DNA of 64,000 bases, taken from sequence record OX638288, one strand, 5' to 3'. Both the position numbers and the translations under genes were made by a program. Position 1 is the first letter of the stretch; each line of letters starts with the position of its first letter. Of the stretch, positions 30,362 through 51,644 are shown one piece after another. The notes below the pieces were generated by a model. The model made no database searches. It was not told the origin of the DNA and saw nothing but the letters and a program-made list of their open reading frames with translations. Source of the DNA: Escherichia phage UP19.

Positions 30362-32030
30362 GTTAAAGAAAGTAACGTATAAAAATATTATGTCGGTCGG
30401 GCAGCAGCCCATTACAATCCAACTTGATAAGGTCCAAAAGACCTTAGTCACTGGTAAAAATGGTGCAGGGAAATCAACATTCCTTGAAGCTGTAACATTT
30501 GCTCTGTTCGGTAAGCCTTTTCGTGATGTTAAGAAAGGGCAGTTGATTAACTCAAGTAACAAGAAAGACCTTTTGGTCGAACTGTGGATGGAATATGATG
30601 GCAAAGAATACTATATCAAACGCGGGCAAAAACCCAACGTTTTTGAAATCTCTTGTGACGGTGAACGTCTTGATGAATCTGCCAGCAGTAAAGACTTCCA
30701 AGCGGAATTTGAACAGCTTATCGGAATGTCCTATGCAAGCTTCAAACAAATTGTCGTACTCGGCACAGCTGGATATACCCCTTTTATGGGCCTATCCACT
30801 CCTGCAAGAAGAAAACTCGTCGAAGACCTCTTAGAGGTTTCTGTATTGGCGGATATGGATAAGTTAAACAAATCTTTGATTCGTGAGACCAATAGCCAAA
30901 TCCAAGTAATAGACGTTAAGCAAGATTCTATTACCCAACAAATTAAAATTTATAATGACAACGAAGAACGTCAACGTAAATTATCTGGCGAAAACGCTGC
31001 CCGTCTACAATTAATGTATGATGAGCTCGTTAAAGAAGCCAGGACTGCGAAGGCGAGCATAGAATCCCTGACTGATGAATTACTCAATGTTATCGTAGAT
31101 GATGACCCTAGCGATTCCATGAGTGACCTGAGTAATAAAGGATTTGCAATCAAAAATGATATGGCAACCTTTACAAAGGTGGTTAAGTTATACGAAACCG
31201 GTGGTCACTGCCCTACGTGTATGCAAGGGTTAGAAGAGAATGGTAATATCCTTACTAAAATTAAGGATAAAAACTTTGAGCTTCAAAAATCTTTGGATAA
31301 GATTAATGAGCAATACCAAGAGCTCAAGCTCATTAAAGACCAAGTAACCGAACAACGCAATAAAGCGTTGGCTATTAAATCTCAGATAGCTACTCATAAG
31401 CAGCAAGCCATTACTGCTGTAGAGAAAGCCAAAAAGGTTAAGGTATTAATTGACCAAGCGGCAGCTGAGTTCGTAAGTAATGCCGAAGAGATTGCTGCGC
31501 TTCAAGCAGAGCTTGATAAAATCGTCTCTACCAAATCGTCCTTGGTAATGGAAAAATATCATCGTGGAATTCTGACAGAAATGTTGAAGGATACAGGTAT
31601 TAAAGGTTCCATTATTAAGAAATACATTCCTATCTTTAATAAGCAGATTAATTCTTATTTGAAGATGTTAGAGGCGGATTATAGTTTTTCTCTTGACGAA
31701 GAGTTCAATGAGACGATTAAGTCGCGTGGACGCGAAGACTTTAGTTATGCTTCATTTAGTGAAGGTGAAAAGTCTAGAATAGATGTGGCTCTGTTATTTA
31801 CCTGGCGAGATATTGCTTCAAAGGTTTCAGGCATTAATATATCTACTCTTATTCTTGATGAGGTCTTTGATGGAAGTTTTGATGCAGAAGGTATTAAAGG
31901 TGTATCAAATATTATAAATTCTTTGGAAGATTCTAATGTCTTTATAATTTCACACAAAGACCATGACCCACAATCGTATGGACAACATTTACAAATGAAG
32001 AAGGTTGGCCGCTTTACAGTATTAGAATAA
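30348..32030 (+). CDS. 46: recombination nuclease ATPase subunit gp46 (SbcC/Rad50-like), 560 aa
   Basis: ORF track 30336..32030 trimmed; MKTFKLKKVTYKNIMSVGQ...GKNGAGKST matches T4 gp46 as recalled. Confidence 0.93.
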   Translation: MKTFKLKKVTYKNIMSVGQQPITIQLDKVQKTLVTGKNGAGKSTFLEAVTFALFGKPFRDVKKGQLINSSNKKDLLVELWMEYDGKEYYIKRGQKPNVFEISCDGERLDESASSKDFQAEFEQLIGMSYASFKQIVVLGTAGYTPFMGLSTPARRKLVEDLLEVSVLADMDKLNKSLIRETNSQIQVIDVKQDSITQQIKIYNDNEERQRKLSGENAARLQLMYDELVKEARTAKASIESLTDELLNVIVDDDPSDSMSDLSNKGFAIKNDMATFTKVVKLYETGGHCPTCMQGLEENGNILTKIKDKNFELQKSLDKINEQYQELKLIKDQVTEQRNKALAIKSQIATHKQQAITAVEKAKKVKVLIDQAAAEFVSNAEEIAALQAELDKIVSTKSSLVMEKYHRGILTEMLKDTGIKGSIIKKYIPIFNKQINSYLKMLEADYSFSLDEEFNETIKSRGREDFSYASFSEGEKSRIDVALLFTWRDIASKVSGINISTLILDEVFDGSFDAEGIKGVSNIINSLEDSNVFIISHKDHDPQSYGQHLQMKKVGRFTVLE

Positions 32031-32713
32031 TGAGACATCTTGTTTACAAAATAATAAATTTAGTTAATAATAAGTACTATGTAGGGATACATAGTACTGA
32101 AAATATTAAAGATTCGTATATGGGCTCTGGTTTATATATTAAAGCTTCTATTAAAAAATATGGTTTGGAAAATCATAGAAAGGAAATACTTTATAATTTT
32201 GATACCAGAGAAGAGGCTATCCAAATGGAAAGAATTATAGTCAATGAGGAATTTATAAAGAACCCTCTTACATATAATATTTCTTTAGGAGGTAATGCCG
32301 CACCTTTTATAAAAGAGGAAACCAGACTTAAACAGAGTATAGCTGCTAAAAATAGACCGTATTCATTTTATGAAAACCTTTTTAAAACTAGAAAGAAATC
32401 TAAATGCCTAGAGCTAAGAAATAAATCTAAAGAACATATAGAAAAAATTCGTCAGAGTAATATAAGAAATGGTACATATTTGCCTGAGAACAACCCTATG
32501 TTCGGAAAAACTCATAGCCAAGAAACAAGGGATAAAATTTCTATAGCCCTTAATTCTAGGTCTGACGAAGCAAAACAGGCTATGAAAAGCAAACAATCTG
32601 CAAAAGCTAAAAGCAGACCAACTGTAAAGTGCCCATATTGTGATAAAATTGGCTCTAACAACATTATGAAACGATGGCACTTTGATAATTGTAAATTAAA
32701 GGATGCTTCATAA
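32030..32713 (+). CDS. GIY-YIG homing endonuclease (Seg-like), 227 aa
   Basis: GIY-YIG motif 'VYKIINLVNNKYYVGIHST'; AT-rich codon usage; inserted between 46 and rpbA. Confidence 0.8.
   Translation: MRHLVYKIINLVNNKYYVGIHSTENIKDSYMGSGLYIKASIKKYGLENHRKEILYNFDTREEAIQMERIIVNEEFIKNPLTYNISLGGNAAPFIKEETRLKQSIAAKNRPYSFYENLFKTRKKSKCLELRNKSKEHIEKIRQSNIRNGTYLPENNPMFGKTHSQETRDKISIALNSRSDEAKQAMKSKQSAKAKSRPTVKCPYCDKIGSNNIMKRWHFDNCKLKDAS
32030..32713 (+). mobile_element. free-standing homing endonuclease gene
   Basis: GIY-YIG ORF between conserved genes; markedly more AT-rich than flanks. Confidence 0.55.
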
Positions 32714-36278: not shown

Positions 36279-36298
36279 AGGGACTTCGGTCCCTTTTT
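36279..36298 (+). terminator. rho-independent terminator
   Basis: AGGGAC-TTCG-GTCCCT followed by TTTTT. Confidence 0.7.
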
Positions 36299-36326
36299 GG
36301 AGTATAATGATTCATCAACAAACAAA

Positions 36327-36350
36327 AGACAATCACTCGTCTATAAAGGA
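36327..36350 (+). promoter_or_regulatory. candidate gp43 translational operator hairpin abutting SD
   Basis: AGAC-AATCACTC-GTCT; 8-nt loop resembles the T4 gene 43 operator loop as recalled; immediately 5' of AAGGA SD. Confidence 0.45.
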
Positions 36351-36356
36351 AATGAA

Positions 36357-39068
36357 ATGCAAGAATTCTATTTGACAGTCGAACAAATCGGTGATAATAT
36401 TCTCGAACGTTACATCGATAAAAATGGTAACGAACGTAGTCGTGAAGTTCCTTACAAGCCTACAATGTTTATGCACGCTAACCCAGAGCAAGCCGTAAAA
36501 TATATTGACATCTACGGTAAGGGTTGTGTTAAGAAAGAATTCGATTCAATGCGCGATGCTTCTCAGTGGATGAAGCGCATGGACGATATGGGTCTCGAAG
36601 CCCTTGGTATGGACGACTATAAATTAGCCTATTTGTCTGATACCTATCGTAAAGAAATCAAGTATGATTCTTCCAAGATTCGTATTGCAAACTTCGACAT
36701 CGAGGTAACATCCCCTGATGGATTCCCTGAACCTGCCCAGGCTAAACATCCTATCGATGCCATTACTCACTACGACTCGATTGATGATAAATTCTATGTA
36801 TTTGACCTTTTAGTTTCACCTTATGGTACGGTCGAAGAGTGGTCGATTAAAATCGCTGAGAAACTCCAAGACGAAGGTGGCGACGAAGTTCCACAAGAAA
36901 TCATTGACAAAATCGTTTATCTTCCGTTTAATTCTGAAGAAGAAATGATGCTTGAGTATCTGAATTTCTGGCAACAGAAAACTCCTGTGATTTTGACTGG
37001 ATGGAACGTTGAATCATTTGACGTGCCATACGTTTATAACCGTCTGAAAAATCTGTTTGGTGAGAACACTGCTAAGCGATTAAGCCCACATCGTAAGACT
37101 CGTGTTAAAGTTATCGAGAATATGTACGGTGTTCGCGAAATTATTACACTGTTCGGTATCTCTGTTCTGGATTATATCGACCTTTATAAAAAATTCAGCT
37201 TTACTAACCAGCCTTCTTATTCTCTGGATTATGTTTCTGAATATGAATTGAAAGTAGGTAAGTTGAAATATGATGGTCCTATCTCCAAGTTACGTGAGAC
37301 GAACCACCAACGATATATTTCCTATAACATTATCGACGTATATCGTGTTGTGCAGATTGATATGAAACGCCAGTTCATTCTTCTTAGTCTGGACATGGGT
37401 TACTATGCCAAGATGCAGATTCAGTCGGTGTTCAGTCCAATTAAGACTTGGGACGCTATTATCTTTAATAGCCTTAAAGAACAGGGTAAAGTTATTCCTC
37501 AGGCCAAATCGCATGCGGTTCAACCTTATCCAGGTGCTTTCGTTAAGGAACCTATTCCTAACGCGTACAAATATGTAATGAGTTTCGACCTTACATCTCT
37601 GTACCCGAGTATCATTCGACAAGTGAATATAAGCCCAGAGACCATCGCAGGGACATTCGCCAACGCACCGATACATGAATATATTGCCGGAACTGCTCCG
37701 CGTCCTAGCGACACCTACAGTTGCTCTCCTAACGGCATGATGTACTATAAAGACCGTGATGGTGTGATTCCTACAGAAATCACGAAGGTGTTCTTACAGC
37801 GTAAAGAACATAAAGGTTATATGCTTGCAGCTCAACGTAATGGTGAGTTAATTAAAGAAGCATTAGAAAATCCTAATCTGTCTGTTGATAGTCCACTGGA
37901 TATCGATTATCGTTTCGACTTCTCTGACGAAATCAAAGCTCAGATTAAAAAATTGTCAGCATCTTCTTTAAAAGAAATGTTGTTCAAAGCCGAACGTACT
38001 GAAGTCGCAGGTATGACTGCTCAGATTAACCGTAAGTTGCTTATCAACTCCCTTTATGGTGCACTTGGTAACGTATGGTTCCGTTACTATGACCTCAGGA
38101 ACGCAACTGCAATCACATTGTTTGGTCAAATGGCCCTCCAATGGATTGAACGTAAGGTTAACGAATATCTGAATGGCGTGTGCAAGACTGAAAACCAGAA
38201 GTTCGTGCTCTATGGTGATACTGACTCCATTTATGTTAAGGCTGACGCAATCATCAATAAAGTAGGCGAAGACAAATTCCGTGATACTAACCACTGGGTT
38301 GACTTCTTAGATAAATTTGCACGTGAACGTATGGAACCGGCTATTGATGCAGGCTTCCGTGAGATGTGCGAATACATGAACAACAAACAGCACTTGATGT
38401 TCATGGACCGAGAAGCTATCGCTGGTCCTCCGCTTGGTTCTAAAGGTCTTGGTGGATTCTGGACAGGCAAGAAACGTTATGCACTGAACGTTTGGGACAT
38501 GGAAGGTACTCGTTATGCCGAACCACACTTGAAAATCATGGGTCTCGAAACTCAGAAATCAAGTACGCCTAAAGCGGTTCAGAAAGCACTGAAAGAATGT
38601 ATCCGTCGTATGCTTCAAGAAGGCGAGGCTTCTTTGCAAGAATATTTCAAACAGTTTAATAAGGAATTTAACGAATTAGACTATGTAAGCATTGCTGCAG
38701 TATCCAGTGCTAACAACATCGAGAAATATAATGAAGGCGGATTCCCTGGTTCTAAATGCCCGTACCACATCAAAGGTTGCTTAGCTTACATGCGTGCTTC
38801 TGCTGGTGATTTGACTATGCCTCGTATCGTTGATGGTGAAAAGGTATATGTACTGCCACTTAAAGAAGGCAACCCGTTCGGTGAAGCTTGTATGGCGTGG
38901 CCGTCAGGTATTGAACTTCCGATTCAGATTCGTGACCAAGTCCTCCGTTGGATGGACTACAACGTACTGTTCCAAAAGACCTTTATCAAACCTCTAACCG
39001 GTTTTACTGAGTCTGCTAAAATCGACTACGAGAAAAAAGCAACATTATTTGACATGTTTGACTTTTAA
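36357..39068 (+). CDS. 43: DNA polymerase gp43 (family B), 903 aa
   Basis: ORF track 36297..39068 (TTG alt start) trimmed to ATG; strong similarity to T4/RB69 gp43 as recalled, closer to RB69-type. Confidence 0.97.
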   Translation: MQEFYLTVEQIGDNILERYIDKNGNERSREVPYKPTMFMHANPEQAVKYIDIYGKGCVKKEFDSMRDASQWMKRMDDMGLEALGMDDYKLAYLSDTYRKEIKYDSSKIRIANFDIEVTSPDGFPEPAQAKHPIDAITHYDSIDDKFYVFDLLVSPYGTVEEWSIKIAEKLQDEGGDEVPQEIIDKIVYLPFNSEEEMMLEYLNFWQQKTPVILTGWNVESFDVPYVYNRLKNLFGENTAKRLSPHRKTRVKVIENMYGVREIITLFGISVLDYIDLYKKFSFTNQPSYSLDYVSEYELKVGKLKYDGPISKLRETNHQRYISYNIIDVYRVVQIDMKRQFILLSLDMGYYAKMQIQSVFSPIKTWDAIIFNSLKEQGKVIPQAKSHAVQPYPGAFVKEPIPNAYKYVMSFDLTSLYPSIIRQVNISPETIAGTFANAPIHEYIAGTAPRPSDTYSCSPNGMMYYKDRDGVIPTEITKVFLQRKEHKGYMLAAQRNGELIKEALENPNLSVDSPLDIDYRFDFSDEIKAQIKKLSASSLKEMLFKAERTEVAGMTAQINRKLLINSLYGALGNVWFRYYDLRNATAITLFGQMALQWIERKVNEYLNGVCKTENQKFVLYGDTDSIYVKADAIINKVGEDKFRDTNHWVDFLDKFARERMEPAIDAGFREMCEYMNNKQHLMFMDREAIAGPPLGSKGLGGFWTGKKRYALNVWDMEGTRYAEPHLKIMGLETQKSSTPKAVQKALKECIRRMLQEGEASLQEYFKQFNKEFNELDYVSIAAVSSANNIEKYNEGGFPGSKCPYHIKGCLAYMRASAGDLTMPRIVDGEKVYVLPLKEGNPFGEACMAWPSGIELPIQIRDQVLRWMDYNVLFQKTFIKPLTGFTESAKIDYEKKATLFDMFDF

Positions 39069-39070
39069 GT

Positions 39071-39100
39071 GTTTACATACCACATGGAACGTGGTAGTAT
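39071..39100 (+). promoter_or_regulatory. T4-type early promoter (GTTTAC 39071-39076, TAGTAT 39095-39100) with hairpin TACCAC/GTGGTA in spacer
   Basis: 18-nt spacer; hairpin 39078-39096. Confidence 0.5.
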
Positions 39101-39130
39101 CCTTCCTATCAACTACATGAGGAAATTATA

Positions 39131-39367
39131 ATGGAAGCTTTAATCGTTAGTGCTGGTGTTTTAGGATTCGGTTCTCTGGTTATTATGTTCATTGGTTACT
39201 TTTTACCATGGATTCTGGCCCTTCTGCGAGGCACTCGTAGCAATGTTGGAATCTTCTTCCTTAATCTCCTGTTAGGGTGGACGATGATTGGTTGGGTAGT
39301 GGCTTTAATCTGGGCTATCGTCGCTGAACGTAAATCAAACGCACAAATCATTATCGTTAAACAATGA
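39131..39367 (+). CDS. imm: small two-helix membrane protein, Imm-like by position (78 aa)
   Basis: position immediately downstream of gene 43; two transmembrane segments. Confidence 0.5.
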   Translation: MEALIVSAGVLGFGSLVIMFIGYFLPWILALLRGTRSNVGIFFLNLLLGWTMIGWVVALIWAIVAERKSNAQIIIVKQ

Positions 39368-39501
39368 AGATAATTATTTTATTTCTTATAATGGCTGCCT
39401 TTACCGTTTATTGGGCAGTGGCAATTCCTCCAATGATTCCAACATTAATCATGGGATGGATTATTCTTATAGCACAAATTAAGTATAACTGTTTTAATTG
39501 A
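39364..39501 (+). CDS. small hydrophobic protein (45 aa), below ORF-track cutoff
   Basis: translated by eye; ATGA overlap with imm-like stop. Confidence 0.4.
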   Translation: MKIIILFLIMAAFTVYWAVAIPPMIPTLIMGWIILIAQIKYNCFN

Positions 39502-39508
39502 GGATATT

Positions 39509-40009
39509 ATGAAAAAGTTAATTATCGCAATGAGTATGCTCCTATCAGGTTGCGCAGTCCAATACGGTGATGCAGTTTCTGCTGATGAAGTTGGTAAAGC
39601 TCGTATCGCAGCTGAACAGAAACAATTCGACGGCGAAATGAAATTCCGTGCCGGTTCTGGACTTGTGTACACCCGAGCTAATAATCAATGTGGTAATAAC
39701 TGTGCAAAATATGCTCAAGGGGAAATCGAATTCCAACGTGAACAAGAGTCTAAGCGTGAAGCGGTACTAGCCAAACACCAGGCAGAAATGAAGCGCCAAG
39801 ATGATTTGTACAAAAAGCAGAAACTGTATGCCATGTGTGTAAACCATATCAATCTACAGATTTCTGTCCACGAGGCTCGTTATTACGAAATGCTCGAAAC
39901 CGAGAGCTTCGATAAGGCTCGTGATTATAAGAAACAAATCAACAAGCTTAAGACCAAAGTGCCTGCTGCAGTAGAACAGTGCATGGAATACGGTAAAGAT
40001 AAGATTTAA
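39509..40009 (+). CDS. lipoprotein (166 aa)
   Basis: signal peptide with lipobox LSGC; charged coiled-coil-like C-terminal half. Confidence 0.6.
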   Translation: MKKLIIAMSMLLSGCAVQYGDAVSADEVGKARIAAEQKQFDGEMKFRAGSGLVYTRANNQCGNNCAKYAQGEIEFQREQESKREAVLAKHQAEMKRQDDLYKKQKLYAMCVNHINLQISVHEARYYEMLETESFDKARDYKKQINKLKTKVPAAVEQCMEYGKDKI

Positions 40010-40069
40010 GCAATAGAAATTTATTAAAAATAGTGTATAATGTACCTACATTCACTTGAGGAACAGATA

Positions 40070-41743
40070 ATGAAAAAGGTTGTTATTTTAGGCGCAGGTC
40101 TTGGCTCACGGTTGTATCCAATTACTAACGAAATCCCAAAGGTATTGGTTAACTACAAACAACATACGGTATTAAAACATTTGTATGATTTGTATAGTAA
40201 CCAATCAGATGAAATTATTCTGGTTATTCACAGCAAATTTAACGACCTCGTTAAAGGCTATATTAAATCCATTAACATGATTACTGGTGATAAGCCTAAA
40301 TTCACTATTCGTAACGTTGATGTTGCTAATGGTTCAGCTCATGCTATCGATTGCATTGCCGAAGATATCATTGGCCATAATGTCCTGTTTAACTGGTGTG
40401 ACATCATTCCTATCGGTCATAAAGTTGAATGGGGTAACGACTATTGTTATACCTATGGAACTGACTGTCGCTTTACATTTGAAGAACCGTACTTACGTGA
40501 AATTGGTACCGGTGGCGGTGTAGTTGGTTTGTATCAGGTAGCCAATTGGACAGGTTTCGACCGTTCTAATTATGGCGAAGACCTTGCTGATAACCTGGAT
40601 TCAATGGTCTATTTGACTGAACGTAAACTGGATTTTGTAGTTGATGTCGGTGACAAATTGAAACTTGCCAAGGCCCATGAAGATTCTGAAATTAACCGTG
40701 AATTTAATAAATTAGAGTTCACCGAGAATCTGGCTATTAAAGTACCAACTAACGAATTAGGTAAAGAAATTCAATCTAAAGAAATCAATTGGTATAATTC
40801 TATTGATTCTGAATTCGTTCCTAGCATTGTAGACTTTTCTCCAGGCGAATTCATTAAAATGGAACGTATCTTTGGTCGTACCATGGCAGATGCCTACCGG
40901 TTTATGTCCAAAGAAACTAAAGTCCTCATGGTTTATAAGGTCATTAGTGCATTACGTTCATTCGGTGGAACTATCGATAATCCGTCCGATGAGCAATGGT
41001 ATTCCGATGTTAAGAAAGAAGTGTTGGACAAGGTCCTTATTCGTAATGCTTCTATTGCCGGATTGATTGAAGGCTTTGCTCCACAGGGCATTACCCATGT
41101 TAACGATTTCAAAGTAGGCGACCCCGAAAAACTTCTCCGCCATGCACTAGAAATTCTGTCTGAACATAAAGAACCGTACCAACTTATTCATGGCGACCCG
41201 CACTACAGTAATATTATGCTGTCGGACGAAGGTGATATTAAAATCATCGACCCACGTGGTTATTTCGGTAATAGTTCTAAAGGCCCTGCGATTTATGATG
41301 AAGCTAAGGTGCTTTATTCTATCGATGGCTATGACAAATTTAACTCAGACCCTCTATGGGGTGGATTAACTCGTAACGGAACTCGTGTATTCGTTGATAT
41401 CGAAAAGGTTATGCCTTTAGACGATATTCCTATGTGCACATTTAAGCACAAGCTCTGGATTGCTGTTATTTGGATGGCGCTGGCAGGTTACTTTAAGAAT
41501 AACCCTCTGAAAGCTCTGGGTGCTTATTATAACGGTTTGTATCAACTGAGTGTGCTGCTGAAGCGGCATCCTCGTAAGCGTAAGCTTATTACTGGTGAAT
41601 TTGTCGATGAAGTTCGTGACCCTATCACGGCTCAAATTATTACTCGTTGTCCTGATAAGTGGGTTTTGCTTGACCAGGAAACTGGTGTAAAATATAAACC
41701 TACAGGTTCTACTGAGCTCCACAAACAATGGAAGAAAATTTAA
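40070..41743 (+). CDS. bifunctional nucleotidyltransferase/kinase-like protein (557 aa)
   Basis: ORF track 40040..41743 trimmed; N-terminal ILGAGLGSRLYPITNEIPKVLV; C-terminal HGDPHYSNIM and IIDPRG. Confidence 0.75.
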   Translation: MKKVVILGAGLGSRLYPITNEIPKVLVNYKQHTVLKHLYDLYSNQSDEIILVIHSKFNDLVKGYIKSINMITGDKPKFTIRNVDVANGSAHAIDCIAEDIIGHNVLFNWCDIIPIGHKVEWGNDYCYTYGTDCRFTFEEPYLREIGTGGGVVGLYQVANWTGFDRSNYGEDLADNLDSMVYLTERKLDFVVDVGDKLKLAKAHEDSEINREFNKLEFTENLAIKVPTNELGKEIQSKEINWYNSIDSEFVPSIVDFSPGEFIKMERIFGRTMADAYRFMSKETKVLMVYKVISALRSFGGTIDNPSDEQWYSDVKKEVLDKVLIRNASIAGLIEGFAPQGITHVNDFKVGDPEKLLRHALEILSEHKEPYQLIHGDPHYSNIMLSDEGDIKIIDPRGYFGNSSKGPAIYDEAKVLYSIDGYDKFNSDPLWGGLTRNGTRVFVDIEKVMPLDDIPMCTFKHKLWIAVIWMALAGYFKNNPLKALGAYYNGLYQLSVLLKRHPRKRKLITGEFVDEVRDPITAQIITRCPDKWVLLDQETGVKYKPTGSTELHKQWKKI

Positions 41744-42126
41744 TGTCGCATCGAGTAGAAAATAAGCCACATTTATGTTTTGATATCGATAACACAATCA
41801 CGATTTGGAACCATGACCGTGATTATGAGAACTTTAAACCGGACACCGAAATGGTGTCCATGATTAATAAGCTTTATGATGAAGGGTACGAGATTACATT
41901 ATTCACTGCCCGTGGCATGACTTCATGTGGCCCAGGTCGAATCTTGGTTGAAGTAGTTCCTGCATTGGTTAAGAACCTTGAAAAGATTGGATTGAAATAT
42001 CATAATCTGCTTACGCATAAGCCGAGTTATACTTTTATCATCGATGACCGAGCAATCCGTCCTGACCACTTTAAAGAAATGGTTCGTGAAGGAACTCTTG
42101 ATAGTTATAAGGCCTATCATCCATGA
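41743..42126 (+). CDS. HAD-superfamily phosphatase-like protein (127 aa)
   Basis: ORF track 41728..42126 trimmed to TAATG-overlap ATG; HAD motif I FDIDNTIT. Confidence 0.65.
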   Translation: MSHRVENKPHLCFDIDNTITIWNHDRDYENFKPDTEMVSMINKLYDEGYEITLFTARGMTSCGPGRILVEVVPALVKNLEKIGLKYHNLLTHKPSYTFIIDDRAIRPDHFKEMVREGTLDSYKAYHP

Positions 42127-42659
42127 ATCCAAAAATCATTGTTATAGACGGCCCGGATAATTCCGGGAAGTCCACTTTAATTAAAAATCTGTTATCCAAT
42201 AAGAAATACCGCCTTATTGATTTTCCTAAAAAGATTAATGGCAAGTGTATTTCATTAGGAACTGATAACGATAAGGCTTTAGTTGAAACTCTGTATAAGT
42301 TTTTAGACCCTAATTTCGTTTATATCCTTGACCGTGGTTATCCAAGTAATATTGTTTACTCAGGATTCCTTCGTGGTGAAATGGACCCTTATGTAGAACT
42401 GGAAGATTGGAAAGGGTTTAAATCCGAATTTAACGTTATCGAGGTTATTTTAACTCGCAATCCATTAGACGAAGACTTCGAAGACGACCTTATTAAATTA
42501 ACCAAAGATGAGTTCAACCTAACTATCCGGCAATACGAAACATGTTTTGAAAACGTGTTTAAAATCTTAAATCATGACGGCCATAATAATTTGCTTAATG
42601 TTGATATGGTAGAATTAAAACGTCTGAACGAATATATTGAAAATAAGGTGAATAAATGA
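42123..42659 (+). CDS. P-loop (d)NMP-kinase-like protein (178 aa)
   Basis: Walker A IVIDGPDNSGKST resembles thymidylate/deoxynucleotide kinase family. Confidence 0.65.
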   Translation: MNPKIIVIDGPDNSGKSTLIKNLLSNKKYRLIDFPKKINGKCISLGTDNDKALVETLYKFLDPNFVYILDRGYPSNIVYSGFLRGEMDPYVELEDWKGFKSEFNVIEVILTRNPLDEDFEDDLIKLTKDEFNLTIRQYETCFENVFKILNHDGHNNLLNVDMVELKRLNEYIENKVNK

Positions 42660-43354
42660 AACACATTACCGCTGTTAGTTTTGAAAATGCATTTAAACAA
42701 ATGAACGAAGAAATCCTGGAAGCTCCACAGTTTGCAGTTGATTCTCGTATCGGACGTTGTTATGAAATTGGTTCTGCTTCGGTAGAAGTACTGGATGCAA
42801 GCACCTATAAATTCACCGACCCACGTATCAATCGTATTAGTTATGAATATGCCGAATCCTTTTGGAAATTTATGATTTCTGGTGGTACTGACGCTGCCGA
42901 AGCATTTAAGGAATACCCTAATGTTGCTAAGTTCATTGATAAGCCGAAAAGTGATGTATTGCCTGCAAACTTCAACACTTTCTATGGACCTCGAATTGTG
43001 GCCCAACTCCCAGCCCTACTTAAAGAGCTTAAAGAAAAGGCTAACTCGCGAAGAGTTGTGTTCCAGATTCTCCAAGAACAAGACCAAGCCCTCCTTGATT
43101 CTGACGAATCCTTAGAATATCCTTGCACCGATTCGGTAACGTATTATATTCGTGACGGACGTTTGTATGCACACACCCATATGCGTTCACAAAACTGCGC
43201 CGTTGTTATGCAGCTGGATTTCTATCTGCAGGGTAAACTGATGGCATTTATTGCTGAACAGTGTGGTGTCGGTTTAGGTACATATTCCCACACCATGGTA
43301 AGTGCACACGTGTTTGAACGTGATTTTGACTACGTCCGAGGTTTCCTGAAATGA
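42656..43354 (+). CDS. 42: thymidylate-synthase-fold pyrimidine hydroxymethylase (gene 42 position), divergent from T4 gp42 (232 aa)
   Basis: NSRRVVFQI, EYPCTDSVTYYIRDGRLYAHTHMRSQNCA and SAHVFERDF align with T4 gp42 motifs as recalled. Confidence 0.7.
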   Translation: MKHITAVSFENAFKQMNEEILEAPQFAVDSRIGRCYEIGSASVEVLDASTYKFTDPRINRISYEYAESFWKFMISGGTDAAEAFKEYPNVAKFIDKPKSDVLPANFNTFYGPRIVAQLPALLKELKEKANSRRVVFQILQEQDQALLDSDESLEYPCTDSVTYYIRDGRLYAHTHMRSQNCAVVMQLDFYLQGKLMAFIAEQCGVGLGTYSHTMVSAHVFERDFDYVRGFLK

Positions 43355-44244
43355 GTTTGTTTATCGTTCCTATTTTCAGTATGCGTAGTTACGAAACAGG
43401 TGAATATGCCGTCCTTAAGGACGGCAATTTTCAACTCCATTTAAATCGTGCTCGTCCAGGTGATTATCTGGCTTATCCTAGAAATTCGAGCGATATCAAA
43501 GAATGCATTGAATTATTCCCAGAACTGAATTTCGTACCACTTTGGTATAAAGAAAATGCTTATGAAACCCGTAAACATTTCTGGTCTGAAAATGAGTTTG
43601 TAGTCGATTCACTAATCGAATACTATGATTGCTCAGGACTGGTGACCGATATCACCGGTTATGATGGTGCTCATACTGTACAATTCAACTTTAATATCAC
43701 AATGGACCCTGAAGTTCCTCGTTATTATATCGACGAGTTCATTGATATTGATGTGGCTTCAGTTGAACGTTCACTTTATACTACAGTCTTGAATCAATGC
43801 CAGAAAGACGTCCTGGTGTCACGAGGTGCATCCTCTGATAAGATTTTTGTAGACCAAAAGGTAATTAATCCTGCAGTAATTGAGCGTTACTCTGAAGGTC
43901 TAGCGCCTATTAAAATTGATGGTATTTTCCATCCATTCCGTATTTCGGATAAGTGTTATCAATTCGAAAGAGTTGTAGACCAAGCTGCCGCTGAAGGTGC
44001 TCGTCTTTATATCACCGACCCTAATGATTCATTTAAGCGCGAAGACTATCGTCCTGATGTAGAGATTATTAAATTCAAACCGAGTAAGGTTGAATATTAT
44101 CAAATTCTGAAATCAAGACCACATATCATTTATCATGAGAACCCAGGTTTAGTATTCCATCCTGGTCTGGCTGAATTCATTTATTTTGGTGCCAATATTC
44201 ATTCTGAATACGAAATGCCACGTTATGAGGACGTAGTATGCTAG
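43351..44244 (+). CDS. hypothetical protein in beta-glucosyltransferase position; candidate DNA-modifying transferase (297 aa)
   Basis: ORF track; positional replacement of T4 beta-gt between 42 and uvsX; no recognisable similarity to T4 beta-gt as recalled. Confidence 0.6.
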   Translation: MSLFIVPIFSMRSYETGEYAVLKDGNFQLHLNRARPGDYLAYPRNSSDIKECIELFPELNFVPLWYKENAYETRKHFWSENEFVVDSLIEYYDCSGLVTDITGYDGAHTVQFNFNITMDPEVPRYYIDEFIDIDVASVERSLYTTVLNQCQKDVLVSRGASSDKIFVDQKVINPAVIERYSEGLAPIKIDGIFHPFRISDKCYQFERVVDQAAAEGARLYITDPNDSFKREDYRPDVEIIKFKPSKVEYYQILKSRPHIIYHENPGLVFHPGLAEFIYFGANIHSEYEMPRYEDVVC

Positions 44245-44369
44245 GTCCTCTATTGCTTTTTATAGGTTTGTTATTATTCTCTTTCGGAGGCTTGCTATTA
44301 TTAGTGTGGCTCGAGAAACGAGAAGTTCGGAAGATAGTCGATAAGGCTATCAACCGAGGAATTAAGTAA
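44238..44369 (+). CDS. small hydrophobic protein (43 aa), below ORF-track cutoff
   Basis: translated by eye; overlaps preceding stop. Confidence 0.3.
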   Translation: MLGPLLLFIGLLLFSFGGLLLLVWLEKREVRKIVDKAINRGIK

Positions 44370-44446
44370 TGCTGTAGCTGTGAAGTGATATAATTACCCT
44401 ATCTTAAAACGTGAGAAAAATATAATGATGCCTATGGAAAAATATA

Positions 44447-45619
44447 ATGTCTGATTTAAAATCCCGTTTGATTAAAGCTTCTACTTCTAAAATGACTGCC
44501 GACCTGACCAAATCTAAATTGTTTAATGGTCGTGACGAAGTTCCTACTCGTATTCCTATGCTTAATATTGCATTGGGTGGTGCGTTGAATGCAGGCTTAC
44601 AATCAGGTTTGACAATCTTTGCTGCACCGTCTAAACACTTTAAAACGTTGTTTGGATTAACTATGGTTGCGGCATATATGAAGAAATATCCAGACGCAAT
44701 TTGCTTGTTCTATGACTCTGAGTTCGGTGCTTCAGAATCTTATTTCCGTTCAATGGGTGTTGACCTGGAACGTGTGGTTCATACGCCAATCCAGTCAGTC
44801 GAACAACTGAAGGTTGACATGACCAACCAATTAGAAGAAATTACTCGTGGTGAAAAGGTTATTATCTTTATCGACTCCATCGGTAACACTGCTTCTAAGA
44901 AAGAAACCGAAGATGCTTTGAACGAGAAAGTTGTAGGTGATATGACTCGTGCTAAGTCTCTGAAATCTCTGTTCCGTATCGTAACACCTTATCTGACTAT
45001 CAAGGATATTCCTTGCGTAGCAATTAACCATACGGCTATGGAAATTGGTGGAATGTATCCTAAAGAGATTATGGGTGGTGGTACTGGTATTCTGTACTCT
45101 GCTTCTACCGTATTCTTTATCTCTAAACGTCAGGTTAAAGATGGTACCGAGCTCACTGGTTATGACTTCACCCTGAAGGCCGAAAAATCTCGTACTGTTA
45201 AAGAGAAATCAACGTTCCCAATTACTGTGAACTTTGAAGGTGGTATCGACCCGTTTAGTGGTCTGCTCGAAATGGCTACTGATATTGGCTTTGTCGTGAA
45301 ACCTAAAGCTGGTTGGTATAATCGTGCATTCCTTGACGAAACCACGGGTGAAATGGTTCAAGAAGAAAAATCATGGCGTGCTAAAGCTACCGATTGTGTC
45401 GAGTTCTGGGGACCACTGTTTAAACATGCTCCATTCCGTGAAGCAATCGAGAATAAGTATAAGCTCGGTGCAATTAATTCTATTAAAGAAGTCGATGATG
45501 CAGTGAACGACCTTATTAACTCTCGTGTCTCTAAGAACGTTGCAGTTAAATTGAGCGGTGACACTCAAAGCGCTGCTGATATCGAAAACGATTTAGAAGA
45601 GATGGATTTAGATGACTGA
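44447..45619 (+). CDS. uvsX: recombinase UvsX (RecA-like), 390 aa
   Basis: MSDLKSRLIKASTSK...FAAPSKHFKT matches T4 UvsX as recalled. Confidence 0.95.
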   Translation: MSDLKSRLIKASTSKMTADLTKSKLFNGRDEVPTRIPMLNIALGGALNAGLQSGLTIFAAPSKHFKTLFGLTMVAAYMKKYPDAICLFYDSEFGASESYFRSMGVDLERVVHTPIQSVEQLKVDMTNQLEEITRGEKVIIFIDSIGNTASKKETEDALNEKVVGDMTRAKSLKSLFRIVTPYLTIKDIPCVAINHTAMEIGGMYPKEIMGGGTGILYSASTVFFISKRQVKDGTELTGYDFTLKAEKSRTVKEKSTFPITVNFEGGIDPFSGLLEMATDIGFVVKPKAGWYNRAFLDETTGEMVQEEKSWRAKATDCVEFWGPLFKHAPFREAIENKYKLGAINSIKEVDDAVNDLINSRVSKNVAVKLSGDTQSAADIENDLEEMDLDD

Positions 45620-51028: not shown

Positions 51029-51122
51029 GTTATCCTCCTGTTAAATTAATATTTATTCGCTTTAATCTAGCAGTTTATAATTATCTAACTTACTAACAAA
51101 TGAATTGATAAGGAAAAATATA

Positions 51123-51644
51123 ATGGCTCATTTTAATGAATGTTCTCAACTTATTGCCGGTGCCGATAAAGCTGAAGAAGCTTATTTTAATGCTCTGATT
51201 CACGAAGATAAAGACCCTCTACAGGTTATGCTTGATATGCAGAAATCTTTGCAGGTTCGTTTAGCTAAAGATAAGCCTGAATATAATCGTCATCCTGATG
51301 ATTTGGCCACTGCGGGTGAAGTTGTCGATTGGCTTCGCAACCAGAAAGATTATATTGATGACGAATTCCGTGAACTTCTGACTTCTCTTGGTGGTATGAG
51401 CAATGGTGAAAAAGATGCATCTGCAGTATGGAAGCCTTGGAAAGCTCAACATGCTGAACGTCGTGAAACCCTGATTAACGATTTGTCTCCTGAAGACCAG
51501 CTCGAAATTAAATTCGAAATGATTGATATTCTGCACTTTGTTCTGAATATGTTCCAGGGTCTTGGACTGACCGCTGAAGAAATCTTTAAACTGTATTACC
51601 TGAAAAATGCCGAGAACTTTGCTCGTCAAGACCGAGGTTATTAA
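51123..51644 (+). CDS. 56: dCTPase/dUTPase gp56 (173 aa)
   Basis: ORF track 51105..51644 trimmed; MAHFNEC...DPLQVMLDMQ...FRELLTSLG matches T4 gp56 as recalled. Confidence 0.9.
   Translation: MAHFNECSQLIAGADKAEEAYFNALIHEDKDPLQVMLDMQKSLQVRLAKDKPEYNRHPDDLATAGEVVDWLRNQKDYIDDEFRELLTSLGGMSNGEKDASAVWKPWKAQHAERRETLINDLSPEDQLEIKFEMIDILHFVLNMFQGLGLTAEEIFKLYYLKNAENFARQDRGY

Follow-up and report, generated by a model that had tools for sequence, protein, structure and literature searches.

A probable 5-hydroxy-dCMP synthase in the gene 42 slot of a Dhakavirus and its predicted DNA arabinosylation module

We analysed a stretch of 64,000 nucleotides from Escherichia phage UP19 (OX638288), hereafter the window. 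The thymidylate synthase (TS)-fold enzyme encoded at 42656–43354 (plus strand; 232 aa, ATG start) is most likely a 5-hydroxy-dCMP synthase and not a hydroxymethylase, a reading to which we assign a probability of about 0.9 from its homology to RB69 gp48 and its signature residues. RB69 gp48 makes 5hodC in vivo, 18O from 18O2 is incorporated, and FMN co-purifies with the enzyme (PMC13326640); a homolog from phage HY126 has likewise been reported to turn dCMP into 5hodCMP with flavin and O2, as summarised in PMC13326640. The window is 99.6% identical to the Dhakavirus genome IME281 and 98.5% identical to JS98, and is thus Dhakavirus DNA. Both the enzyme family and its carriage by Dhakaviruses are already known: the biology was published in 2025–2026, and Dhakaviruses were named, by synteny, among the genera with the cluster (Lee et al., NAR 2026, PMC13326640).

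Divergence from T4 gp42 and similarity to RB69 gp48

The initial annotation described the enzyme in the gene 42 slot as strongly divergent from T4 gp42 among conserved neighbours. This is borne out by blastp, in which the ORF and T4 gp42 share only 24.5% identity across 159 aa, whereas the products of neighbouring genes are 59–71% identical to their T4 counterparts (gp43, 61%; UvsX, 67%; gp41, 65%; gp56, 68% over 173 aa; gp46, 70%; gp47, 71%; gp44, 67%; gp45, 59%). Likewise, T4 gp42 (PDB 1b49) is found by phmmer as a PDB match of the ORF at only 24.9 bits (E 1.5e-4). The gene order in T4 is 43 - imm.1 - imm - 42 - beta-gt - segA - uvsX, and in the window it is 43 - imm - ... - TS homolog - glycosyltransferase - uvsX; T4 gp42 and the synthase ORF therefore share a genomic slot that is followed by a DNA glycosyltransferase gene.

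Comparison with both T4 and RB69 had been proposed as a check, which took the RB69 enzyme to be a gp42 of the T4 type. That premise does not hold. The alignment yields no ordinary identity to T4 gp42, and the RB69 slot enzyme, gp48, is 79.7% identical to the ORF over its full length. This value is in line with those of neighbouring proteins compared with RB69 (gp43, 84%; UvsX, 90%; gp41, 68%). The ORF is therefore far removed from its T4 counterpart yet unexceptional beside that of RB69, and it is not a fast-evolving gp42.

A similarly close match is found among solved structures. The ORF is identical to PDB 9iqu at 185 of 231 positions (80.1%, E 2e-125), and the chains of 9iqu, 9iqc and 9ir2 are in turn identical to RB69 gp48 at 228 of 231. 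These three entries are deposited as 'Thymidylate synthase' and probably represent the enzyme that He et al. (Nat Chem Biol 2026) described from E. coli phage HY126. Nearly half of the 46 substitutions that separate the ORF from 9iqu (22/46) lie within the first 53 residues, and none of the 46 affects a position that aligns with one of the ThyA active-site residues given by Lee et al. A solved structure and an experimentally studied homolog, each at about 80% identity, thus establish the family to which the ORF belongs.

Fold, signature residues and phylogeny

The ORF has TS-fold homology, as indicated by Pfam and by phmmer searches of the PDB, which return MilA and many thymidylate synthases. 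The Pfam Thymidylat_synt match (PF00303, E 3.6e-13) covers only residues 114–229. All of the motifs quoted in the initial annotation are present in the ORF as given there: SRRVVFQI (131–138), PCTDS (156–160), YIRD (164–167), HMRSQN (175–180) and SAHVFERDF (216–224).

Lee et al. (2026, PMC13326640) proposed D169N (E. coli ThyA numbering) as the diagnostic residue of 5-hydroxy-dCMP synthases, and further features of the family are the catalytic Cys146, an N177D exchange that specifies cytosine, and an acidic residue in place of L143. All four are found in the ORF, as Cys146, L143E, N177D and D169N. In the alignment, its C157, E154, D188 and N180 correspond to ThyA C146, L143, N177 and D169, with N180 lying inside HMRSQN; the ORF thus has D188/E154/N180 and not the Asn177/Leu143/Asp169 of ThyA, and it ends ~45 residues before the ThyA C-terminus, without the folate-closing segment found there in ThyA. 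Asn is present at position 169 in all five clade members aligned, including the Serratia 92A1, Acinetobacter Stupor and Rhizobium LG08 homologs, while Asp169 is kept in T4 gp42, PG7 gp42, MilA, PW916 and three thymidylate synthases. The same signature and the same slot between gp43 and uvsX are shared by RB69 gp48 and Acinetobacter phage DLP3 gp80, both 5-hydroxy-dCMP synthases (PMC13326640). The earlier suggestion of an altered product or modification chemistry is in agreement with these observations, since the family makes 5-hydroxy-dCMP instead of 5-hydroxymethyl-dCMP and the ORF has D169N; the label 'hydroxymethylase' is not appropriate for an ORF ~80% identical to 5-hydroxy-dCMP synthases.

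Phylogenetic support was computed directly as bipartition frequencies from neighbor-joining (NJ) bootstraps. The D169N clade is recovered in 100% of bootstraps, and its grouping with gp42 in only 13%. In reciprocal PDB searches, ordinary thymidylate synthases are at least as close to gp42 and to the synthase family as these two are to one another, and the best non-self PDB matches of gp42 are bacterial thymidylate synthases, not members of the synthase family. Direction and donor aside, these sequence data are consistent with replacement by a non-orthologous member of the TS superfamily, an explanation of the divergence that the initial annotation had raised. The GC content of the synthase ORF (0.43–0.44) is slightly richer than that nearby (0.34–0.42), but an argument for recent transfer from GC was rejected, as this shift in base composition is too weak.

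Could the ORF nevertheless encode a true gp42 ortholog that has diverged rapidly while continuing to turn dCMP and methylene-THF into 5-hydroxymethyl-dCMP? Its slot and orientation are those of gene 42, like gp42 it retains the catalytic Cys, the Arg residues that bind phosphate, Asp at 177 and Glu at 143, both proteins belong to phrog_160 in PHROGs, and many GenBank records label the gene dCMP hydroxymethylase. We nevertheless consider this very improbable, given 80% identity to enzymes making 5hodC and not 5hmdC, an Asn in place of the Asp169 found in gp42 and every folate-dependent relative, an identity to RB69 that matches that of the neighbours and so speaks against fast evolution, the infrequent bootstrap grouping with gp42, and an arabinose-activation module in place of glucosyltransferases. 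A different pyrimidine, which the initial annotation had also entertained, is less probable still. Under this explanation the enzyme would act on dUMP, as a thymidylate synthase or a dUMP hydroxymethylase/hydroxylase, giving modified thymine or uracil and not cytosine, in keeping with the TS fold and with the 'thymidylate synthase' of many RefSeq and GenBank records. The best NCBIfam match is indeed an archaeal thymidylate synthase model, but at 61.6 bits against a cutoff of 174.55, and NCBIfam thymidylate synthase models as a whole score far below their cutoffs. Moreover, Asp188 stands at the ThyA Asn177 position, where it switches preference to cytosine, dCMP is the demonstrated substrate of the family (PMC13326640), and the annotation of IME281, which is nearly identical, places a conventional thymidylate synthase (Asn177, Asp169) at another locus. 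The presence of gp56 dCTPase, Alc and DenB also points to cytosine replacement. Assignment as a 5-hydroxy-dCMP synthase is accordingly preferred over both.

The 5-hydroxy-dCMP synthase assignment can be set against three known enzymes. T4 gp42 (1b49/1b5e) has in common with the ORF the TS fold, the dCMP substrate, the catalytic Cys, Asp at N177 and an acidic residue at L143. It differs in having Asp169 and folate-dependent hydroxymethylation, in contrast to the Asn and flavin/O2 hydroxylation of the synthase family, whose product lacks the methylene carbon of the gp42 product, so that an ether bond joins the sugar straight to C5. The best-scoring characterised PDB relative outside the family is MilA (5jnh/5b6d; E 4e-13), the CMP 5-hydroxymethylase of mildiomycin biosynthesis, which aligns over ORF residues 5–226 and carries Asp at the N177 position as well as at L143. 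Unlike the synthase family, MilA keeps Asp169 and uses folate; it acts on the ribonucleotide CMP in bacterial secondary metabolism and has an extra C-terminal region. ThyA shares the fold, the catalytic Cys and equivalents of Arg166/Ser167, Arg126/Arg127, Tyr94 and His207, but is only 15–21% identical to the ORF and differs at N177D, L143E and D169N; the ORF lacks, or does not conserve, the Trp80 region that contacts folate and the last ~45 residues of ThyA.

A putative arabinosylation gene module

The synthase gene lies within a co-oriented module of five plus-strand genes (40040–44244) joined by four consecutive start/stop overlaps. The first gene (40040–41743; likely start near 40070) encodes a homolog of the bifunctional sugar kinase/sugar-1-phosphate nucleotidyltransferase AfhE (RB69 gp52:53), with NTP_transferase (aa 13–110, 3.4e-8) and APH kinase (aa 356–427, 1.2e-5) domains in Pfam, a phrog_4098 match at 5e-268, and 44% and 41% identity to RB69 ORF053 and ORF052. 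By analogy with HY126 AfhE, as summarised in PMC13326640, it is predicted to be a UDP-arabinose kinase/pyrophosphorylase. It is followed, through a TAATG overlap at 41741–41745, by a HAD-family sugar phosphatase (41728–42126; likely true start ATG 41743) homologous to AfhF and RB69 gp51, which is 62% identical to RB69 ORF051 and matches the NCBIfam capsule biosynthesis phosphatase model TIGR01689 (1.3e-14). According to the summary in PMC13326640, AfhF converts Araf-1,5-P2 to Araf-1-P in HY126, and the same role is predicted for the window phosphatase.

The third gene (42123–42659) encodes a Tmk-like P-loop nucleotide kinase, which matches phrog_761 'thymidylate kinase' at 1.5e-39 and is 38% identical to RB69 ORF045; its counterparts in RB69, DLP3 and RL38J1 are listed as 'nucleotide kinase' (Lee et al., PMC13326640). 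Its start and its stop each overlap a neighbour as ATGA, the synthase ATG being part of these overlaps. Another ATGA joins the synthase stop to the start of the fifth gene (43351–44244), a DNA arabinosyltransferase 1 homolog in the position of beta-gt in T4. Over 296 aa, this protein shares 67% identity with fused RB69 ORF047+ORF046, a single arabinosyltransferase gene split by sequencing error (Lee et al., PMC13326640); it matches phrog_3891 (3e-159, function unknown in PHROGs) and has no Pfam match. With these overlaps, kinase/pyrophosphorylase, HAD phosphatase, Tmk-like kinase, synthase and arabinosyltransferase form a translationally coupled module.

The core cluster between gp43 and uvsX known from RB69, DLP3 and HY126 is therefore present, with its transferase at 67%, phosphatase at 62% and kinase/pyrophosphorylase at 41–44% identity; across all partners, identity to the RB69 arabinosylation genes is 38–67%. 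The kinase/nucleotidyltransferase, HAD phosphatase, Tmk-like kinase and arabinosyltransferase 1 are shared with both RB69 and DLP3, although the Tmk-like kinase is upstream of the synthase in the window and downstream of the transferase in RB69.

Several other components differ. RB69 has an arabinose-5-phosphate isomerase (ORF055), a U32-like ORF050, ORF049 and the second arabinosyltransferase ORF003, and no counterpart of these four was found in the window or IME281; the isomerase is present in DLP3 too, and transferases beyond the first serve di- or tri-arabinosylation in clusters of this type. Within the window, tblastn gave no isomerase match, and homologs of ORF003, alpha-gt and beta-gt were not detected in sequence searches. 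In IME281, the alpha-gt slot is empty, and the interval from topoisomerase to rIIA.1, which holds ORF003 in RB69, contains only a 53-aa ORF. Outside the window, the absence of the isomerase and of a second transferase is based on the IME281 annotation and Pfam scans of its unassigned ORFs: no SIS-domain protein is found among those of at least 158 aa, and no unassigned ORF reaches 300 aa. As transferase 1 itself has no Pfam match, a novel transferase could escape such a scan.

Predicted pathway and sugar

The following steps are predicted from homology to RB69, DLP3 and HY126, with the chemistry taken from the literature on close homologs. The gp56 dCTPase/dUTPase (51105–51644, plus strand; likely start ~18 nt downstream of the listed TTG), annotated as a dCTPase in IME281, is predicted to convert dCTP to dCMP, thereby supplying dCMP and stripping dCTP from the pool. 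The synthase would then hydroxylate C5 of dCMP to give 5hodCMP, using flavin and O2 rather than methylene-tetrahydrofolate. Conversion of 5hodCMP to 5hodCTP would fall to a dNMP kinase of the phage, whose gene lies outside the window, and to the NDP kinase of the host, and the gp43 polymerase would incorporate 5hodCTP in place of C; Alc and DenB, annotated in IME281, fit such complete cytosine replacement. The kinase/pyrophosphorylase and the HAD phosphatase would produce UDP-arabinose from arabinose 5-phosphate, and the transferase would ether-link arabinofuranose, taken from UDP-arabinose, to the 5-hydroxyl groups of the DNA.

Arabinose 5-phosphate is available in E. coli, where KdsD and GutQ produce it as a precursor of Kdo, and a phage isomerase is therefore probably dispensable. 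From the missing isomerase and the missing second arabinosyltransferase, we infer that the arabinose 5-phosphate is probably host-made and that the Dhakavirus product is probably mono-arabinosyl-5-hydroxycytosine. Mono-arabinosyl-5hoC built from host arabinose 5-phosphate alone is a likely product but would be only mildly new, since mono-arabinosylated forms have already been reported in other phages. No chemical or nucleoside analysis of any Dhakavirus DNA was found in the searchable literature.

A reduced cluster might alternatively place a non-arabinose sugar on the 5-hydroxyl made by the synthase, or leave it largely bare. Such an outcome would fit the lack of a detected phage isomerase, U32-like protein or second transferase, the low identity of the kinase/nucleotidyltransferase to that of RB69, and the hexoses used by the 5hoC phage RL38J1 (Lee et al., PMC13326640). 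We regard it as unlikely, because the transferase and phosphatase are close to the RB69 arabinose enzymes, the kinase/nucleotidyltransferase retains its domain architecture, and KdsD and GutQ can stand in for a phage isomerase. Only slightly less doubtful is the idea that the minimal cluster installs another pentose, or a single sugar linked differently from that in RB69, DLP3 and HY126: with a diverged kinase/pyrophosphorylase and no isomerase, the sugar could in principle differ. If true, it would be a new member of the 'glycodiverse' 5hoC derivatives. Arabinose is thus the preferred sugar, and the modification is predicted to consist of one arabinose and to depend on KdsD/GutQ of the host.

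Implications and minor observations

In this enzyme family, a TS scaffold that otherwise depends on folate has come to serve as a flavin/O2 hydroxylase, and the resulting ether-linked arabinosyl-cytosine phage DNA resists restriction enzymes and CRISPR, as shown for RB69, DLP3, HY126 and relatives. The assignment corrects the common database labels 'dCMP hydroxymethylase', 'thymidylate synthase' and 'hypothetical protein', and suggests that the DNA of JS98-like candidates for phage therapy probably contains arabinosyl-5-hydroxycytosine and not glucosyl-hmC.

A scan of 39000–44600 revealed no excess of promoters (16 vs 19.0±5.1 in shuffles) or terminators (4 vs 3.6±2.0), and no transcription unit is proposed on this basis. 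Antisense ORFs within the synthase gene, such as 42572–43006 on the minus strand, were rejected as by-products of the coding frame. The sequence AAGGTG is located 9 nt upstream of the synthase start ATG.

Divergence of the gene 42-position ORF from T4 gp42

The ORF in the gene 42 position lies at 42656-43354 on the + strand (232 aa), exactly where the initial annotation placed it, and all of the motifs quoted there are present: SRRVVFQI (residues 131-138), PCTDS (156-160), YIRD (164-167), HMRSQN (175-180) and SAHVFERDF (216-224). A match to the Pfam thymidylate synthase family is confined to residues 114-229 (E 3.6e-13). When window proteins were compared by blastp with those of the T4 region, the ORF was 24.5% identical to gp42 over 159 aa, whereas its neighbours were 59-71% identical to their T4 counterparts (gp43, 61%; UvsX, 67%; gp41, 65%; gp56, 68%; gp44, 67%; gp45, 59%; gp46, 70%; gp47, 71%). 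The claimed differential divergence is both large and real. In a PDB search with the ORF, T4 gp42 (1b49) is matched at 24.9 bits (E 1.5e-4).

Over the 5 kb surrounding the ORF, the window shares 99.6% identity with Enterobacteria phage vB_EcoM_IME281 and 98.5% with JS98 and JS10 (genus Dhakavirus). The top PDB matches of the ORF are 9iqu, 9iqc and 9ir2 (E 2e-125), which were deposited under the name 'Thymidylate synthase'; 185 of 231 residues (80.1%) are shared with 9iqu. These chains are identical to RB69 gp48 (RB69ORF048c) at 228 of 231 positions, and RB69 gp48 is itself 79.7% identical to the ORF over its full length, so that RB69 had been wrongly treated as T4-like. Since the ORF is as conserved relative to RB69 as its neighbours are (gp43, 84%; UvsX, 90%; gp41, 68%), it is not a fast-evolving gene. 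The ORF and T4 gp42 belong to different ortholog groups.

Homologues of the ORF at 60% identity or more were found by tblastn in 342 records, which come from T4-like phages (Straboviridae) infecting Escherichia, Klebsiella, Enterobacter, Serratia, Erwinia, Proteus and Acinetobacter. Below this group there is a gap, with the next matches, in Rhizobium phages, at ~30-34%. GenBank/RefSeq labels for the gene conflict ('hypothetical protein', 'thymidylate synthase', 'dCMP hydroxymethylase' and 'deoxycytidylate 5-hydroxymethyltransferase'), and NCBIfam release 20 holds no model for the 5-hydroxy-dCMP (5hodCMP) synthase family.

Assignment to the 5hodCMP synthase family

A study that explains the ORF is already in the literature and mentions Dhakaviruses by name (Lee et al., Nucleic Acids Res 2026, PMC13326640). 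In that study, RB69 gp48 and DLP3 gp80 convert dCMP to 5hodCMP, the oxygen derives from 18O2 in labelling, FMN co-purifies with the protein, and 5hodC enters E. coli DNA when the synthase is co-expressed with a phage dNMP kinase. Dhakaviruses were included by synteny, among eleven other groups. The proposed diagnostic residue is an Asp169-to-Asn change (E. coli ThyA numbering), alongside N177D (cytosine specificity) and L143E/D, and nine further D169N homologues were validated (PMC13326640). He et al. (Nat Chem Biol 2026) are credited there with a crystal structure of the HY126 homologue with bound flavin and with its reconstitution in vitro. Independently, mono- and di-arabinosyl-dC were reported in a Mosigvirus, and the older 'arabinosyl-hmC' assignment for RB69 was called erroneous (PMC13390438).

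Residues were mapped with MAFFT alignments of the ORF with E. coli ThyA, T4 gp42 and RB69 gp48, and of twelve superfamily members. C157, R177 and S178 of the ORF correspond to ThyA C146, R166 and S167, while E154, D188 and N180 replace L143, N177 and D169, respectively. Besides the window enzyme, those of RB69, Serratia 92A1, Acinetobacter Stupor and Rhizobium LG08 have Asn in the 169 column; Asp is retained in T4 and PG7 gp42, MilA, PW916 and the three thymidylate synthases aligned, one of which is the conventional td of IME281. The ORF differs from 9iqu at 46 positions, none of them aligned with a ThyA active-site residue. The ORF, which shows every family feature that can be read from sequence, is a predicted 5hodCMP synthase. 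Of the altered enzyme that the initial annotation proposed, a different modification chemistry and a non-orthologous enzyme are both supported, but the label 'hydroxymethylase' is wrong; the suggestion of a different pyrimidine was also wrong, as D188 is the cytosine-specifying residue at the N177 position.

Two further columns were recorded in these alignments. In thymidylate synthase, the residue at ThyA Tyr209 makes contact with the 3'-OH of deoxyribose. The aligned residue of the ORF is F220 (codon ~43313-43315); the RB69, Serratia and Acinetobacter enzymes likewise have Phe, and Tyr is found in T4 and PG7 gp42, MilA, the thymidylate synthases and the D169N homologue from Rhizobium. A Pseudoxanthomonas phage PW916 protein (712-1527 of the analysed locus), annotated as 'deoxyuridylate hydroxymethyltransferase', has Asp rather than Asn in the N177 column of the twelve-member alignment. 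By the usual rule this would suggest a cytosine substrate, and there may be an error in the annotation or in the alignment.

In the PDB search with the ORF, gp42 scores below MilA (52.9 bits) and below some fifty thymidylate synthases. In the reciprocal search, gp42 has its best non-self matches in Bacillus ThyA (43.4 bits) and then E. coli ThyA, with 9iqu at 29.9 bits and MilA at 19.8 bits. In a small-sample neighbour-joining tree (217 trimmed columns, bipartitions counted directly), support is 100% for the D169N clade and likewise for the gp42 pair; only 13% of replicates unite the two, and deeper branches are weakly supported (55-56%). At the same slot, T4 carries gene 42 and beta-gt, whereas the window carries the synthase and an arabinosyltransferase. 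This pattern fits cassette-level replacement at the gene 42 slot, for which the small tree gives neither direction nor timing.

A reduced modification cluster between gp43 and uvsX

The module lies between gp43 (36297-39068), followed by imm (39131-39367), and uvsX (44447-45619). It comprises a 567-aa protein in which a sugar-1-phosphate nucleotidyltransferase is fused to an APH-type kinase (44% and 41% to RB69 ORF053 and ORF052), a TIGR01689-like HAD phosphatase (62% to RB69 ORF051), a Tmk-like P-loop kinase (42123-42659, +; 38% to RB69 ORF045), the synthase, and a 297-aa homologue of arabinosyltransferase 1 (67% to fused RB69 ORF047+046). These last five genes, from fusion kinase to transferase, are linked by TAATG or ATGA start/stop overlaps (41741-45, 42123-26, 42656-59 and 43351-54). 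The gp56 dCTPase lies at 51105-51644, and no alpha-gt or beta-gt homologues were found in the window. The sugar-enzyme functions are those of HY126 AfhE and AfhF, in a scheme running from arabinose 5-phosphate through Araf-1,5-P2 and Araf-1-P to UDP-Araf, as summarised in PMC13326640, where 5hodCMP is phosphorylated by a separate gp1-type dNMP kinase.

The Tmk-like kinase is the least conserved member of the module here (38% to RB69), and counterparts are retained across all 5hoC clusters (RB69 gp45, DLP3 gp78, RL38J1 gp214). The HAD phosphatase gene is labelled 'phosphoheptose isomerase' in public records. Between imm and the sugar-activation gene, a 166-aa ORF (39509-40009, +) has a lipoprotein-type signal (MKKLIIAMSMLLSGC), matches phrog_1754, a group of unknown function, and has a single weak Pfam match that falls short of the curated threshold (MTBP_mid, E 0.007); it has no counterpart at the RB69 locus and might, like the adjacent imm, have a part in superinfection exclusion. 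A very hydrophobic 43-aa ORF (MLGPLLLFIGLLLFSFGGLLLLVWLEK...; 44238-44369, +) overlaps the arabinosyltransferase gene end and occupies the ~200-nt gap before uvsX. It is without annotation in IME281 and may be spurious.

Compared with the RB69 and IME281 loci, the Dhakavirus cluster (window 36297-44447) is a reduced version of that in RB69. A tblastn search of the window gave no homologue of RB69 arabinose-5-phosphate isomerase (ORF055), the second arabinosyltransferase (ORF003), U32-like ORF050 or ORF049, and the larger unassigned ORFs of the window have no glycosyltransferase or isomerase domain. Outside the window, absence was judged from IME281 annotation and Pfam: every ORF of at least 300 aa has a T4-type assignment, the eight unassigned ORFs of 158-216 aa have no SIS domain, and a 53-aa ORF is all that occupies the topoisomerase-to-rIIA.1 interval, where RB69 has ORF003. 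The isomerase occurs in 276 phage records versus 342 for the synthase, consistent with some lineages being without it. Gene order also differs, with the Tmk-like kinase upstream of the synthase in Dhakavirus but downstream of the transferase in RB69. From the reduced gene set we predict mono-arabinosylation using host-made arabinose 5-phosphate; we infer that host KdsD/GutQ would supply this substrate and that the DNA would carry a single arabinose per cytosine.

Mobile endonuclease content

Directly after gp46, the window encodes a 227-aa ORF (32030-32713, +) with a NUMOD3 motif, which is typical of homing endonucleases, whereas IME281 carries a minus-strand homing endonuclease (138117-138833) at the same site. 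Mobile endonuclease content differs between these otherwise near-identical sequences.
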